Notes: generated from the letters alone by a model not told the origin. Shown: positions 3,469-24,500, counted from the first letter of the stretch. The stretch: 64,000 bases of DNA from an uncultured Flavonifractor sp. (GCA_963557075.1 CAUWDA010000007.1:2082-66081); one strand, 5' to 3'. Program-made: numbers and translations.

Positions 3469-3936
3469 TTTACGCGGTAAAAGGCTTGCTCTTGGGATTG
3501 ATGATATCGCGCCAGTCCAAATCGCCCCGCGCCCCACCCGATGGTTCCCATCGTGTGGGGACCCCGGTGATTTCAAATGCGGCCGCCGGAAATGAATTCC
3601 GCCGGCCTTCGGCGGCATGAGCCGCCGTACCGCCGGAGGCGGTTTGCTGGAGCGGGGGAGAAGGCCCTCTCTTTACGCGGTAAAGGGCTTGCTCTTGGGA
3701 TTGATGATATCGCGCCAGTCCAAATCGCCCCGCGCCCCACCCGATGGTTCCCATCGTGTGGGGACCCCGGTGATTTCAAATGCGGCCGCCGGAAATGAAT
3801 TCCGCCGGCCTTCGGCGGCATGAGCCGCCGTACCGCCGGAGGCGGTTTGCTGGAGCGGGGGAGAAGGCCCTCTCTTTACGCGGTAAAGGGCTTACTCTTG
3901 GGATTGATGATATCGCGCCAATCCAAATCGCCCCGC
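3469..3936 (-). mobile_element. Tandem array of two 203-bp units (142-nt structured element + 61-nt copy of the mgsA 3' end)
   Basis: mgsA end at 3876-3936, 3673-3733 and 3470-3530; identical elements at 3734-3875 and 3531-3672; GGAATTCA core; segment antisense to the mgsA junction. The repeat is seen directly; the mobile nature is inferred. Confidence 0.7.
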
Positions 3937-4292
3937 TCCAGGCCGTGGATAAGCATCTCGGCGGTGGCCACATTGGTGGCGATGGGGATATTGTACTGGT
4001 CGCACAGGCGGGTGATATACTTCAGATCCGCATCCAGGTCGCTGGACTGGGGATCGGAGAAGAACAGGACCATATCGATCTCATTGTAGGCGATGCGGGC
4101 GCCGATCTGCTGGCTGCCGCCGTGCTCATGAGACAGGAAAAGCTGTACCGGCAGGCCGGTAGCCTCGGCCACCAGACGGCCCGTCGTGTTGGTGGCGCAG
4201 ATCGTATGCTTGGACAAAATACCACAGTAGGCGATACAGAATTGGACCATCAACTCTTTCTTCCGATCATGGCTCATCAACGCGATATTCAT
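3876..4292 (-). CDS. mgsA: Methylglyoxal synthase
   Basis: MNIALMSHDRKK, GGSQQIGARI, RLCDQYNIPIATNVATAE. Some catalytic-loop residues look divergent (SHEHGG). Confidence 0.85.
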   Translation of the reverse strand: MNIALMSHDRKKELMVQFCIAYCGILSKHTICATNTTGRLVAEATGLPVQLFLSHEHGGSQQIGARIAYNEIDMVLFFSDPQSSDLDADLKYITRLCDQYNIPIATNVATAEMLIHGLERGDLDWRDIINPKSKPFTA

Positions 4293-4324
4293 AGTACACC
4301 TTCTCTTCCTTTCTGTGTCTGTAG

Positions 4325-5068
4325 TCAGGCCCGCAGCTTCATCAGCGGGACCCGCTGACCCGTCAGCCGCTTGGCGATATTCAGGTAGGCGATGGCTGCG
4401 CCACGGCTGGCGCACAGGATGAGCGGCTCCCCGCGGTTGCCGCTGAGAATGACCTGGGGGTCCTCCGGCACGATGCCCAGCAGGGGCAGGCCGGCGGTAT
4501 CCATGGCGTCGTCAATGGTGGTGTGGAGCCGCCGCAGCAGCTTGGGCTGCACCCGATTGACCACCAGATGGAGCTGAGGCAGGCGGGTGCGCAGCACGGA
4601 TACGGTGCGCTGGGCGTCCCGCAAGGCGGAGGCGTCGGTGGTGGAGACCACCACGGCCCGGTCCGCCGCACAGCAGGCCAGCCGGAATCCCTCGCCCAGC
4701 CCGGCAGGGGAGTCCATCAGGATGTAGTCGTATTTCTGCCTGGCCTGACGAACCATGTCCCGCATGGCGTGTTCGCTGAGCGGCTCCTCCGGCAGGGTCA
4801 CCGGCGCGGTGATGAGACTCAGCCCCTGGATCACAGGGTGGGGGACAGCCGCCCGCTCCAGGGAGCAGCGCCCGCTGAGCACATCGGTAAAGTCCATCAG
4901 AGCCCGGTCACTGAGGCCCAGATTCAGGTCCAGGTTACGCAGGCCGATGTCCATGTCGATACACAGGACCTGGTGGCCCAGGGCGGCCAGACAGGAGGCG
5001 ACGCCGCCGGTCAAAGAGGTTTTTCCCGTGCCGCCCTTGCCTGAGGTGATGACGATTGCTGTGGACAT
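4325..5068 (-). CDS. minD: Septum site-determining ATPase MinD
   Basis: ITSGKGGTGKT, DMDIGLRNLDL, DSPAG motifs; followed by mgsA. Confidence 0.88.
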   Translation of the reverse strand: MSTAIVITSGKGGTGKTSLTGGVASCLAALGHQVLCIDMDIGLRNLDLNLGLSDRALMDFTDVLSGRCSLERAAVPHPVIQGLSLITAPVTLPEEPLSEHAMRDMVRQARQKYDYILMDSPAGLGEGFRLACCAADRAVVVSTTDASALRDAQRTVSVLRTRLPQLHLVVNRVQPKLLRRLHTTIDDAMDTAGLPLLGIVPEDPQVILSGNRGEPLILCASRGAAIAYLNIAKRLTGQRVPLMKLRA

Positions 5069-22237: not shown

Positions 22238-23318
22238 ATCCAATACGCCCCTGATCCGCCTGGCCAAGCGGGACGGGATGTCCGGTGGCAAGGTGTGGGC
22301 CATTCGGGCCGGCTCCTTCCTGGCGGCCATCCTCATCAGCGCCCTCATCTTCCTAGCCATGGGGCACAATCCCTTCGGGGCCTTCGGCACCATGATCGCC
22401 GGTTCCCTGGGCAAAAAGACCGCCATCCGCCAGACCGTGAAGATCGCCATCCCCCTGCTGGGTACCGCTCTGGCCATTGCGCCCTGCTTCAAAATGCGCT
22501 TCTGGAACATCGGCGCAGAGGGACAGATCACCGCCGGCGCCGTGGGGGCCAGCTACTTTGCTCTCTTCTGGGCGGACCGGCTGCCCGCCCCGGTGCTGCT
22601 GGTGGTCATGGCCGTGGCCGGCGTCATCTGCGGCGGCCTGTGGGGCTTGGTCCCCGCCTTCTTCAAGGCCAAGTGGGGCACCAACGAGACCCTGTTCACC
22701 CTGATGATGAACTATATCATGATCGGTGTGGTCAAGTGGCTCCAGGGCGGCCCCTGGGAGGGCCGTCCCGGCTCTCAGATCATTCCTCAGTTCGACTCCG
22801 CCGCTGTACTGCCCAAGGTGCTGGGTGTTCACTGCGGTTGGATCATCGTGCTGGTCCTGACGGTGGCCATGTTCTTCTACATGAAGTACACCAAGCAGGG
22901 CTATGAGATCTCCGTCATCGGCGAGAGCGAGAACACCGCCCGGTATGCCGGTATGAACGTGGGCAAGATCATCATGCGCACCATGTTCCTCTCCGGCGGT
23001 ATCGCCGGCCTGATGGGCTTCGTGGTGGCCTCCGGCGCGGACAATACCCTGTACTCCGGCGTGGCTGCCGGCGTGGGCTTTACCGCCATCACTGTGGCCT
23101 GGCTGGCCCAGCTCAATCCCTTTGCTATGGTGGGCATCTCCGTGCTGCTGGCGGTGCTGGAGAAGGGCGCAGACACCCTCCAGACCCAGCTGGCCGTCCC
23201 CGCCTCTATCTCGGACATCATCACCGGCATCTTCCTGTTCTGTATGCTGGGCTGCGAGTTCTTCATCAACTACCGCCTGATCTTCCGGGGCGGCCATAAG
23301 GAGGGGGCAAAACAATGA
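22230..23318 (+). CDS. ABC permease (nucleoside type)
   Basis: WNIGAEGQ, NETLFTLMMNY, GFTAITVAWL. Confidence 0.9.
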   Translation: MHESNTPLIRLAKRDGMSGGKVWAIRAGSFLAAILISALIFLAMGHNPFGAFGTMIAGSLGKKTAIRQTVKIAIPLLGTALAIAPCFKMRFWNIGAEGQITAGAVGASYFALFWADRLPAPVLLVVMAVAGVICGGLWGLVPAFFKAKWGTNETLFTLMMNYIMIGVVKWLQGGPWEGRPGSQIIPQFDSAAVLPKVLGVHCGWIIVLVLTVAMFFYMKYTKQGYEISVIGESENTARYAGMNVGKIIMRTMFLSGGIAGLMGFVVASGADNTLYSGVAAGVGFTAITVAWLAQLNPFAMVGISVLLAVLEKGADTLQTQLAVPASISDIITGIFLFCMLGCEFFINYRLIFRGGHKEGAKQ

Positions 23319-24304
23319 GCGTCAACAGCAATGCAATACTGCTCCTCATCATGGCCGCCGTCCTCAACGGCGTGCCCCTGCTCTACGGCACCCTGGGCGA
23401 GATCCTGTCGGAAAAGGCGGGCAACCTGAACCTGGGCGTGGAGGGCATGATGTTCATGGGCGGGGCCATGGGCCTGGGCGCGGCCTTCTACTTCGAGGGG
23501 GCGGGCGGTACCAGCGGCGTGCTGGCCGTCATCCTGGCCCTGTTCTTTGCCTTCTTGGGCGGCGCCATCGGCGCGCTCATCTACGCCTTCCTCACCATCA
23601 CCCTCCGGGCCAACCAGAACGTCACCGGCCTGGCCCTGGCCATCTTCGGCACCGGCGCGGGCCAGTTCATCGGCGAGTACATGCGGGTGAGCTCCGGCGG
23701 CTATGTGGCGGTGAGCAACAGCCTGAAGGCGGCCTTCCTCAACTCCCCCTTCCCGGCGGCCCTTCAGCAGCTTCCGGTGGTGGGCCCGCTGCTCTTTGGG
23801 CACAGCGTATTCCTCTACCTGGGCCTGATCCTGGCGGTGGGGATGCATCTCTTTCTGAGCAAGAGCCGGGCGGGCCTGTCCCTGCGGGCGGTGGGCGAAT
23901 CTCCCGCCACCGCTGACGCCGCCGGCATCAACGTCACCCGGTATAAATACCTGGCCACCGTCATCGGCGGCGGCATCTCGGCCATCGGCGGCATGGTGTA
24001 CATCATGACCATTGCCAGCTGCGTGTGGAACCACGAGGCCCTGTCCGGCGAGGGCTGGCTGGCGGTGGCGCTGGTCATCTTCTGCCTGTGGCGGCCCCTT
24101 AACTCCATCTGGGGCTCCGTTCTGTTCGGCGCGCTGATGATCCTGTACCAGCGGCTCCACCTGGGCTTCATCCCCGACGAGCTGTACAAGATCCTGCCCT
24201 ATGTGGTCACCGTCATCGTGCTCATCTTCACCTCCCTGCGCAACAGTAAGGACAAGCAGCCGCCGAACTCCCTCGGTTTGCCTTACTTCCGGGAGGAGCG
24301 GTAA
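23315..24304 (+). CDS. ABC permease (nucleoside type)
   Basis: EKAGNLNLGVEG, ANQNVTGLA, GESPATADAAGINV. Confidence 0.9.
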   Translation: MSVNSNAILLLIMAAVLNGVPLLYGTLGEILSEKAGNLNLGVEGMMFMGGAMGLGAAFYFEGAGGTSGVLAVILALFFAFLGGAIGALIYAFLTITLRANQNVTGLALAIFGTGAGQFIGEYMRVSSGGYVAVSNSLKAAFLNSPFPAALQQLPVVGPLLFGHSVFLYLGLILAVGMHLFLSKSRAGLSLRAVGESPATADAAGINVTRYKYLATVIGGGISAIGGMVYIMTIASCVWNHEALSGEGWLAVALVIFCLWRPLNSIWGSVLFGALMILYQRLHLGFIPDELYKILPYVVTVIVLIFTSLRNSKDKQPPNSLGLPYFREER

Positions 24305-24500
24305 GCCGGATTGTTTGCCAGTGTAGAAGCTGCTTGTCTTGGGACCCGCCGCAGGCGGGACGCGCCTATGGCGCGCAGGCCGGGGGAATTCACTTTCCCC
24401 GGCCGCAAATAAAATCCGGGGTTCCCACGGGACTGGTCCCGTGGGGGTCAAGCAGCCGCCCAACTCTCTGGGCCTGCCCTACTTCCGGGAGGAGCGGTAA
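24253..24500 (+). mobile_element. 196-bp unit: 144-nt structured element flanked by two synonymous variants of the permease 3' end
   Basis: 24253-24304 vs 24449-24500 (6 differences, all silent); GGAATTCA at 24385; antisense segment at 24329-24338. Confidence 0.7.

Follow-up and report, generated by a model that had tools for sequence, protein, structure and literature searches.

Repeated gene ends at three loci

Within the window, i.e., the whole 64,000-nt stretch of DNA analysed, three genes (mgsA, xpt, and an ABC-type permease gene) present the same layout. Read in gene orientation, it is U|X|E|X', where U is the upstream part of the gene, X its end, E a structured segment, and X' a second copy of the gene end. 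An earlier note on this DNA had described this arrangement at three unrelated genes, and the repeats are indeed in place at each of them. A covariance model of E detects four copies only in the window. E is non-coding there and contains no open reading frame, and transposase, reverse transcriptase, and integrase genes are all absent from the window.

The methylglyoxal synthase gene mgsA (3876..4292, minus strand; PF02142 MGS on the called gene) had been presented as a single layout. While the order U|X|E|X holds, the locus carries two tandem units, with a 203-nt unit occurring twice and followed by a third tail copy, all on the minus strand. The last 61 nt of the gene (3876-3936) correspond to X copy 1, the element-borne tail, which has the codons GAT, AGT, and CCC and is now read as the mgsA tail. 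E unit 1 (3734..3875; model R1, 62.4 bits) consists, in order, of a spacer v1, a guide (3850-3860), and hairpins, with a GGAATTCAT loop at 3791-3803 and a terminal hairpin at 3735-3763, then one extra C. X copy 2 (3673..3733; codons GAC, AGC, and CCC) is a hybrid whose 5' part is of the copy 3 type and whose 3' part is of the copy 1 type, which, from its sequence, would be the product expected from unequal crossover. E unit 2 (3531..3672; guide 3647-3657) is identical to unit 1, and is followed by X copy 3 (3470..3530; codons GAC, AGC, and CCT), the displaced native tail, which shows no difference from the tails of the empty alleles L137, L139, and L141. The native mgsA terminator lies after copy 3, at about 3436-3463. 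The mgsA copy of E in the window lacks the left GGGGNCCCC hairpin.

The other two loci, both on the plus strand, each carry one unit. The xanthine phosphoribosyltransferase gene xpt (18098..18670; PF00156) ends with X at 18616-18670 and is followed by E (18671..18814; R1, 66 bits), comprising v1 (18671-18697), the guide (18698-18711), a GGAATTCAC loop (18752-18764), and a terminal hairpin (~18789-18813). Here X' (18815..18869) is identical to X. The permease gene (BPD_transp_2; 23315..24304), with X at 24253-24304, precedes an E (24305..24448; R1, 60.3 bits) with its guide at 24329-24338, GGAATTCAC loop at 24385-24397, and terminal hairpin at ~24424-24446. In this case X' (24449..24500) differs from X by six synonymous changes, and a bidirectional terminator follows at 24506-24552.

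As the earlier note had reported, all three loci share a hairpin, whose GGAATTCAY loop is found in four of four copies of E in the window, and each E contains a segment antisense to its own junction. This segment, the guide, is an exact reverse complement of the U|X junction in every copy, over 11 nt at mgsA (3850-3860 and 3647-3657), 14 nt at xpt, and 10 nt at the permease gene. In the predicted DNA fold at xpt, the guide is paired with the U|X junction (z = -5.8).

Family-wide properties of the element

A covariance model search revealed more than 120 copies of E in related Oscillospiraceae loci. The flanking repeat, which the earlier note had proposed to look for, accompanies most copies from other genomes (76 of 115), and is present also in model-only copies with divergent loops. 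E is 120-230 nt long, with a core of ~110 nt, and has neither an open reading frame nor terminal inverted repeats. Across 55 loci, X measures 17-106 nt (median 57) and ends at a coding boundary, which was scored as a gene 3' end at 43 loci and as a 5' end at 12, although several of these 12 look misassigned and ~8-9 real 5' cases remain. Usually this boundary is a stop codon; in some cases it is the start codon of a gene on the other strand, and at those 5'-end loci that were inspected a ribosome-binding site lies within v1. Gene 3' ends, given earlier as the insertion sites, are thus the majority rather than the only ones.

Other regularities seen in the window hold less strictly across the family. 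The repeats in the window end one nucleotide beyond the stop codon, whereas elsewhere they usually end exactly at it, and the additional nucleotide is best read from this comparison as a coincidence. The GGA preceding the junction, constant in the window, is exact in 13 of 55 loci and amounts to a consensus only (G at -3 in 38 of 55 and at -2 in 34 of 55, with A as the last base of U in 25 of 55). The ending GGGGY is a tendency, not a rule, since E closes with a terminal hairpin ...TGGG(G) followed by 1-4 variable, non-G nucleotides, its last nucleotide usually not being G.

The targets examined are mostly core housekeeping genes. The density of units is ~1 locus per 20 kb for the window and reaches 3 per 8 kb at related loci, and one pgi-like gene tail holds two distinct units in a nested arrangement. 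Repeat-less units sit in intergenic spaces of a phage and a conjugative-type element. At gene 3' ends, E has the same orientation as the gene and precedes the native terminator, and these copies are probably transcribed.

X and X' differ mainly at silent positions. At the 55 loci, differences at codon positions 1/2/3 number 26/10/114, and 114 codons are changed synonymously versus 25 non-synonymously. This bias implies that both copies have been marked by coding selection. The same bias is shown by the 5'-end copies (~8-9 reliable loci), which are antisense to the gene.

Empty alleles, which the earlier note had proposed to seek at orthologous loci, exist in the same species at mgsA and the permease gene, and they differ from the filled alleles by the unit only. 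At mgsA, the number of units varies between strains of the window's own species (0, 1, or 2), and at the permease gene filled and empty alleles likewise coexist within a species, the proteins being 100% identical in both cases. The empty mgsA allele carries the distal tail type (X'). Between empty and filled mgsA alleles, there are no differences in the last 690 nt of U and two in 1297 nt downstream, while the in-gene X differs from the empty-allele tail at 3 of 61 nt, all synonymous sites. Since X differs while its flanks are nearly identical, X was imported together with E; by this allele comparison, the in-gene mgsA X came in with the element rather than by target-site duplication. The earlier view that the repeat is a duplication made at insertion is thereby overturned, while its proposal that the carried tail leaves the gene intact and regenerates the target junction holds, as the in-gene X completes the reading frame.

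Not all spread would involve mobility of the unit. No de novo insertion event was observed among the loci compared. Between species, E divergence tracks host-gene divergence, which implies that much of the inheritance is vertical or within species. At the permease locus, the divergent patch consists of E, X', and 81 nt of flank, and from its extent homologous recombination alone explains the transfer. Part of the spread of filled alleles is thus ordinary homologous recombination.

We found that the antisense relationship extends well beyond the window. Taking the longest exact antisense match at each of 60 related junctions, the median length is 10 nt, versus 5 nt in 420 control windows, and matches of at least 9 nt occur at 38 of 60 junctions versus 7 of 420 controls. 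On these sequence counts, guide-to-junction complementarity is a rule across the family; it is a correlation between guide and site, from which base pairing may be what selects the site. The guide is one contiguous segment of 9-20 nt directly 5' of the first hairpin, ending where the GGGGNCCCC hairpin starts. Its reverse complement is the uninterrupted target site, made up of ~5 nt of U plus ~7-8 nt of X'.

E has four covarying hairpins, with 89% of cells paired and a covariation score of 0.40 versus 0.13 in shuffles (0 of 500 shuffles were as high). In many copies, the motif GGGG-N-CCCC...GGGG-C is common to the first and the last hairpin. Wobble pairs show no G-U excess, neither in the hairpins (42 G-T versus 36 A-C) nor in the guide pairings (1 G-T versus 4 A-C). 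This lack of asymmetry favours folded DNA over RNA.

Known systems and competing explanations

With Rfam 15, no match was obtained at gathering thresholds for the whole window, and in the E regions permissive thresholds yielded only chance-level matches. The earlier note had raised the possibility that an Rfam family already explains E, and none does; we found no Rfam family or paper describing these elements. The family is widespread in gut Oscillospiraceae and, apparently, undescribed.

Several known systems resemble E in part. Like islands and prophages at the 3' ends of tRNA and protein genes, it carries a replacement for the part of the gene beyond the crossover point and displaces the native end to the far junction, with an identity block that stops at the gene boundary. 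Unlike them, it is ~150 nt without an integrase or any gene, its conserved core is the same at dozens of different genes, it occurs at gene 5' ends as well, and site choice correlates with an internal antisense segment. An integrase-type island was rejected, since the identity block is present but the insert is 120-230 nt without an open reading frame. As in group I intron P1/P10, a contiguous internal sequence is complementary to the joined flanks and, as with homing introns and inteins, conserved core genes are preferred, the host gene stays functional, and a cycle of invasion, decay, and loss is likely. However, E lacks a ribozyme core, a terminal G, a junction U-G pair, and helix G-U pairs, and it preserves the gene not through splicing but with a spare end; some of its copies are antisense to the gene. 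A group I intron was rejected on the absence of an Rfam match, the ~110-nt core, and the 1-4 non-G nucleotides after the terminal G run. With IS110/IS1111 elements, E shares a structured non-coding segment of ~150-200 nt containing target-complementary sequence, which suggests that its site choice may be programmable by base pairing. It differs by having no adjacent DEDD recombinase (none in the window), no sign of an RNA form, a long gene-end cargo, and a single contiguous guide instead of split target and donor guides in two loops. The single antisense segment, the absence of a recombinase gene in the window, and the lack of a G-U signal led us to reject a bridge RNA of this type. Also rejected were a classical MITE derived from a DDE element (no terminal inverted repeats; a gene-specific 17-106-nt repeat whose copies are not identical) and a diversity-generating retroelement (differences that are synonymous and not adenine-specific; no reverse transcriptase in the window).

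Four broader explanations have to be weighed. It is improbable, in our estimation, that E encodes or is an RNA, either a guide RNA for a recombinase (bridge-RNA/seekRNA) or an intron-like or retro-mobile RNA aligning U and X' as "exons". A contiguous guide complementary to the joined U|X' is indeed arranged like the internal guide sequence of a group I intron, E is highly structured over its 120-230 nt, its 3'-end copies are placed so as to be probably transcribed, and selection on X' by partial mRNA splicing would also account for synonymous-only differences. However, G-U does not exceed A-C in helices or guide pairings, Rfam gives no match even at permissive thresholds, the core is too small for a group I/II catalytic core, the last nucleotide of E is usually not G and that of U usually A rather than U, the guide is contiguous rather than a bridge-RNA pair of target and donor loops, no recombinase or reverse transcriptase is nearby, and the antisense 5'-end copies nonetheless show the synonymous bias. 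We give equally little credence to E being a cis-acting structure without mobility of its own (an mRNA-end stabiliser, long-range pairing regulator, or priming site), the gene-end repeat being a by-product of recombination. Such a structure would fit the permease transfer, fully explained by homologous recombination, the parallel divergence of E and host genes between species, the repeat-less intergenic units of the phage and conjugative-type element, and the fact that guide-U pairing would enclose the stop (or start) codon in either transcript. Yet homologous recombination cannot make a gene-end copy bounded by a guide-matched site and a coding boundary, a layout that recurs in dozens of unrelated genes. 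The element is moreover dispensable, with empty and filled alleles coexisting in one species, either gene end is targeted with fixed geometry, copies can be nested or in tandem, and their density and choice of core genes look selfish.

That E is an orphan TnpB/IscB-type guide-RNA scaffold, with the start of X' as guide, and that empty alleles are cut by an RNA-guided nuclease and repaired from filled ones, so gaining the element (homing), is very unlikely. A structured scaffold is directly followed by locus-specific sequence, cuttable empty alleles exist, and non-coding IS200/IS605 derivatives often encode TnpB/IscB-type guide-RNA scaffolds (10.1101/2023.03.14.532601), but the U|X site persists unchanged in the filled allele, which would therefore be cut too. 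In addition, there is no conserved adjacent motif at the U end, no match to the known scaffold families in Rfam, and no G-U signal, and the antisense guide is left unexplained. Least credible of all is an ordinary target-site duplication, arising from the integration of a transposon-like E through staggered cuts followed by gap repair. Although direct repeats flank the insert and X equals X' at some loci, e.g., xpt, the mgsA X differs from both X' and the empty allele at three synonymous sites amid nearly identical flanks, X/X' differences are synonymous-biased across 55 loci, repeats vary from 17 to 106 nt and always end at a coding boundary, and terminal inverted repeats are absent. These sequence data already contradict it.

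A putative guide-directed mobile unit

The closest known model would be IS200/IS605-like single-strand transposition. In this "peel and paste" process, a Y1 HUH transposase recognises hairpins of subterminal position, and the sequence 5' of the cleavage site is paired with a DNA guide adjoining the left hairpin; these guides are 4-5 nt, partly non-canonical, and pair with a conserved motif. Palindrome-associated transposable elements (PATE) are non-coding IS200/IS605 derivatives moved in trans by Y1 HUH transposase. Like PATE, E is small and non-coding, without terminal inverted repeats or true target-site duplication. It has strand-specific subterminal hairpins at both ends (except for the left motif of the window's mgsA copy), a guide immediately 5' of the left hairpin that is complementary to sequence 5' of the left boundary, a right boundary a few nucleotides past the last hairpin, and exact empty alleles without the unit. 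Unlike in PATE, where guides are 4-5 nt, the guide pairs over 9-20 nt in Watson-Crick fashion and across both sides of the site; a conserved target motif of 4-5 nt is lacking, the U end having a weak GGA consensus, and the left arm of the unit is a functional gene end. Compared with the lagging-strand rule of PATE, 35 of 40 3'-end copies are on the majority coding strand, while 5'-end copies run opposite to most genes; in these genomes, GC skew is not coupled to gene orientation and is uninformative on the replication strand. IS200/IS605 elements use DNA guides whose spacing to the cleavage motif is variable and "potentially allows capture" of flanking DNA, and such capture via a more distant cleavage motif has been seen experimentally (10.1101/2023.03.14.532601).

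We therefore favour, with some reserve, a reading in which E is the conserved core of a non-autonomous element that inserts at a guide-matched site and supplies a replacement gene end, with the help of a trans-acting enzyme. The mobile unit would comprise X, the short spacer v1, the guide, and the hairpin core, where X is a copied gene end, either a 3' end through the stop codon or a reversed 5' end with its ribosome-binding site. It would sit inside a core gene at U|X', so that the element-borne X completes the reading frame, and the native end X' would be displaced beyond the element as a dead copy beside the native terminator or promoter. Being the complement of the uninterrupted target, the guide can serve as a splint in both directions, aligning the flanks for precise excision and pairing with the empty site for insertion. 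Strand transfer would be carried out on folded single-stranded DNA by an enzyme encoded elsewhere. Relative to IS200/IS605, the guide would have grown longer and come to pair fully in Watson-Crick fashion, and the left cleavage site would have shifted upstream into the gene, by which the gene end would have joined the element. Ordinary homologous recombination later also passes filled alleles from one lineage to another, while the X/X' repeats lead to tandem amplification and probably to loss, and the outcome would be a cycle of invasion, decay, and reinvasion at conserved genes.

A more specific and more tentative version, which we regard as possible but rather doubtful, is that these units are the substrate of a compact DNA-insertion system programmed by base pairing, in which a 9-20-nt guide specifies the site for a new or repurposed host enzyme and the carried gene end makes homing into essential genes cost-free. 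Against the favoured reading, searches for a partner enzyme were negative, as the window has none, none recurs beside repeat-less copies, and tblastn with two Y1 transposase sequences gave no match in 1.25 Mb of E-flanking loci.

What is new here are the coding-boundary ends of X, the synonymous divergence of X and X', the mgsA alleles with 0, 1, or 2 units, and the covarying hairpins without G-U excess. If the favoured reading is true, this would be a new selfish-element strategy, aimed at the most conserved genes as are homing introns and inteins, in which harm is avoided by a spare gene end and not by splicing. Guide-directed DNA transposition would, moreover, no longer be confined to 4-5-nt motifs but would include 10-20-nt Watson-Crick guides working in a ~200-nt unit, which would be of clear interest for programmable insertion; should the system be programmed by base pairing, a changed guide and cargo would retarget insertion. 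In common gut bacteria, these units leave core genes with pseudo-duplicated ends, spurious gene calls, and length polymorphisms between strains, for which annotation pipelines and strain-tracking methods should allow.

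Gene-End Units and the Core Family

The earlier note had claimed for three genes of the window a common layout, U|X|E|X', in which U is the gene body, X the in-gene copy of the gene end, E a noncoding core of ~150 nt with hairpins, and X' the distal copy. This layout was recovered by a repeat finder and confirmed in the sequences. The minus-strand gene mgsA has its last 61 nt at 3876-3936; behind them come, in order, an E of 142 nt (3734-3875), another tail copy (3673-3733), an identical E of 142 nt (3531-3672), a third tail copy (3470-3530), and the native terminator. The corresponding parts of xpt are the tail (18616-18670), E (18671-18814), and second tail (18815-18869), and those of the ABC-type permease gene (23315-24304) are the tail (24253-24304), E (24305-24448), and second tail (24449-24500), with a bidirectional terminator behind. 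The antisense segment described for each locus, which we call the guide, is indeed an exact reverse complement of its own U|X junction, over 11 nt in mgsA (3850-3860 and 3647-3657), 14 nt in xpt (18698-18711), and 10 nt in the permease gene (24329-24338). When the xpt unit was folded as single-stranded DNA, the guide paired with the junction (z-score of -5.8). Since the middle mgsA tail copy is a clean hybrid of both its neighbors, as unequal crossover between X copies gives, the tandem is secondary.

Every E of the window has a hairpin with a GGAATTCAY loop; the invariant TTCAY hairpin loop lies at 3791-3803, 3588-3600, 18752-18764, and 24385-24397. TTCAT and TTCAC are reported cleavage motifs of Geobacillus IS200/IS605 elements (10.1101/2023.03.14.532601), an identity that may be a coincidence or a clue to a related transposase. 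An opposite-strand ORF of 182-192 aa is called over the xpt E and the adjacent REP cluster (18630-19208, minus strand; 2033-2581 in the related locus L130); lacking any Pfam hit, it is probably a spurious call. Between two ParB-like genes (11326-11629) lie three tandem copies, 92-93% identical, of a hairpin-rich ~99-nt unit unrelated to E and without an Rfam match.

In an alignment of 58 cores, four hairpins are supported, with 89% of cells paired and a covariation score of 0.40 versus 0.13 in shuffled alignments, none of 500 of which scored as high; the signal was lost once partner columns were slid. The covariance model proposed in the earlier note, which we built from this alignment, revealed a large family. 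It found just the four known copies in the window (60-66 bits, the next match reaching 22 bits) and 122 copies in 100 related loci, with a maximum of three per 8 kb. A conserved-core pattern matched more than 118 stretches in a species-representative genome collection, mostly in Oscillospiraceae such as Flavonifractor, Intestinimonas, Pseudoflavonifractor, Oscillibacter, and Dysosmobacter. No Rfam family matched, either in the whole window at gathering thresholds or in the three E regions at permissive thresholds, the tRNA/tmRNA scan found nothing, and no description of the family was found in the literature. We rejected E as a terminator because no T tract follows its hairpins and native terminators sit after X'. 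In loci from Lapin rabbit-gut metagenome-assembled genomes (including L002, L004, L015, L020, L025, and L047), E-like cores lie inside composite intergenic clusters of other short repeats, without gene-end duplication; these represent a distinct subfamily or a different mode of spread.

The duplication is not confined to the window, since a flanking direct repeat, beginning 0-5 nt past the terminal hairpin and recurring directly upstream of E, is found in 76 of the 115 usable copies, and also in copies with different loop sequences that were detected by the model only. Measured as longest exact antisense match, complementarity to the junction has a median length of 10 nt, compared to 5 nt in 420 windows from further upstream that served as controls, and reaches at least 9 nt at 38 of 60 junctions versus 7 of 420 controls. 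The guide typically spans ~5 nt of U and 7-8 nt of X, and the first hairpin motif GGGGNCCCC, where present, begins exactly at its end. Several boundary details of the earlier note proved to be tendencies or had to be revised. GGA before the junction is exact in only 13 of 55 loci, although G is frequent at -3 (38/55) and -2 (34/55), as is A at -1 (25/55), and the GGGGY end is blurred by 1-4 variable nucleotides after the terminal G run. The repeat mostly ends right at the stop codon rather than at stop+1, so the extra base shared by the three window loci is due to chance.

Nor are gene 3' ends the only repeated piece. In a minority of loci X ends in CAT, which is, in reverse complement, the start codon of a gene on the opposite strand; of twelve loci scored as such, several look misassigned and about 8-9 remain. 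In the 5'-end loci inspected, lepA (L016, L092, and L112) among them, a ribosome-binding site lies at the right distance in the spacer between X and the guide. Since either gene end can be copied, E always sits immediately outside a coding sequence, and its polarity, running from the interior of the gene outward, is fixed. Most targets are core genes (uvrA, pheT, era, aspS, tsaD, lepA, argH, ilvD, pgi, infB, tuf, and groES). Differences between X and X' fall on codon positions 1/2/3 in the ratio 26/10/114, with 114 synonymous versus 25 nonsynonymous codons, a signature of coding selection in both copies; the synonymous bias is also seen in gene-5'-end loci. In L110 (~100-500), an E unit is flanked by a duplicated tRNA-gene fragment, and nonprotein genes may thus be targets as well.

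Alleles and the Origin of X

Assemblies with 100% identical proteins are polymorphic for the presence of E. The empty alleles sought in the earlier note do exist, mgsA having zero, one, or two units and the permease locus being either empty or filled. At mgsA, empty alleles have the distal tail type (GAC, AGC, CCT), the in-gene tail of filled alleles reads GAT, AGT, CCC, and the flanks are nearly identical, the last 690 nt upstream showing no difference and the 1297 nt downstream only 2. The in-gene X therefore arrived with E, and the native end is now X', displaced by the unit. A target-site duplication is thereby ruled out; the inserted unit is X plus spacer, guide, and core. A diversity-generating retroelement was also rejected, since no adenine specificity is seen in the differences.

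At the permease locus, the window allele diverges from a near-isogenic empty allele in a patch made up of E, X', and 81 nt at the start of the 3' flank; filled alleles also spread via ordinary recombination. No fresh insertion was observed among the alleles compared. Between species, E divergence tracks that of the host gene, indicating that gene-specific lineages are old and mostly inherited within lineages, and leaving recent interspecies transfer unsupported.

Of 80 loci with mgsA orthologs surveyed in metagenomes, just one more proved to be filled. This ortholog (L163, 1540-1830; 88% protein identity) has a related unit with the same 11-nt guide and a different loop (AAGTTCCTT). Its X' starts ~36 nt downstream of the guide target and is therefore truncated, or its boundary has shifted. 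Two different units with their own guides are nested in one pgi-like gene tail (L034, 6600-7100; also L052, 5900-6100), the newer lying upstream of an older one common to a second species, which shows that tails are replaced successively and that insertions can stack. In Flavonifractor plautii ATCC 29863 (L061, 1500-2100, plus strand), the tail of tuf, encoding EF-Tu, precedes an E unit and several copies of the final ~25 nt of tuf in progressive decay, which look like old, repeated events.

Nature of the Core and Search for an Enzyme

Structured RNAs normally show a clear G-U excess. In E, G-T and A-C pairs are 42 and 36 in the covarying helices and 1 and 4 among internal mismatches of guide pairings. 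Gene-3'-end copies are probably transcribed within the mRNA, and gene-5'-end copies are antisense to their own gene. The lack of a G-T excess, the antisense 5'-end copies, and the absence of a T tract or terminator favor E acting as a folded DNA structure. An RNA-based element, whether bridge-RNA-like, intron-like, or retro-mobile, retains some probability because the guide geometry mimics the internal guide of group I introns, but we consider it unlikely, given that the pairing statistics, core size, boundary nucleotides, and antisense copies conflict with it. We give a similarly small chance to a purely cis-acting structure spread by recombination only, which would leave unexplained why, in dozens of unrelated genes, the copied end is bounded by a guide-matched site and a coding boundary. 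An orphan TnpB-type guide RNA is less probable still, since its own filled allele would be cut and the antisense guide would be unaccounted for. The underlying observation of the earlier note was confirmed and extended. Its interpretation, a mobile element whose target would be chosen by base-pairing, is right in outline but wrong in several details.

No mobilizing enzyme was found in the window, which has no transposase, reverse transcriptase, or integrase gene, and tblastn with IS200 and IS608 transposase queries (approximate sequences) gave no match in 1.25 Mb of E-flanking loci. No recurrent ORF or enzyme was found beside E copies lacking the repeat. An autonomous copy with its own gene is accordingly not supported; a phage contig (L001) and a conjugative-type locus (L033) yielded structural genes and DnaB/ParA genes only, respectively. 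E units without gene-end repeat or guide do occur on mobile elements (L001, 4880-5160; L033, 1985-2130; L102, ~2060-2210), two in tandem between structural genes on the phage contig and one between a DnaB-like helicase gene and parA on the conjugative-type element, in two species. Such plain units may be ancestral, or may serve as vehicles for spreading the family. A Microviridae or phage origin was rejected, as "Bacteriophage sp." BLAST matches are bacterial chromosome fragments. Three entries so labeled (MT838853.1, MT838705.1, and MT839134.1) encode MFS, TatD, RF3, SpoIIE, and RibF-type proteins and look like chromosome fragments with E units. REP-like units, GTAG followed by a GC-rich hairpin (GTAGGGGCSG...), occur at 940-1000, 18900-19045, and 58300-58342, one cluster directly after the X' of xpt. 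They suggest that the genome encodes a REP-associated Y1 (HUH) enzyme, a candidate trans-acting partner of E. GC skew was uninformative as a proxy for replication direction.

A Proposed Model for Guided Gene-End Replacement

Taken together, these findings establish the unit with its boundaries and polarity and show that the guide is complementary to the uninterrupted site, that X is imported along with the element, that empty alleles exist, and that homologous recombination brings about secondary amplification and transfer. Because simultaneous pairing with the U end and the X' start is possible, the guide could act as a splint, aligning the flanks for precise excision, or alternatively pair with an empty site for insertion. 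A trans-acting enzyme would cut and join at the guide-defined left boundary and a few nucleotides past the terminal hairpin. By analogy, the closest known chemistry would be the single-strand "peel and paste" of IS200/IS605 elements. Their hairpins are subterminal, a DNA guide lying 5' of the left one pairs with the left-end flanking motif, no duplication is made, and donor joints are precise. Against this model speak the much longer guide of E and its poorly conserved target end, as well as the negative enzyme searches and the absence of a fresh insertion among the alleles compared. According to Meers et al., guide-motif spacing is flexible, which may allow capture of flanking sequence (10.1101/2023.03.14.532601).

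A plausible history would start with a plain unit in the untranslated region beside a gene. Use of an upstream cleavage site within the gene would then make the gene end part of the element, insertion at the orthologous site of an empty allele would become harmless, and selection would favor longer guides that direct the element to sites fitting its cargo. Synonymous-only differences and within-species polymorphism fit repeated invasion of functional empty alleles followed by decay or loss, and decayed filled alleles are seen at the F. plautii tuf locus and in L163 with its truncated X'. E would thus unite guide-assisted single-strand transposition with the replacement gene end brought by integrative elements, both known ideas, and the enzyme and mechanism behind it stand a real chance of being new.
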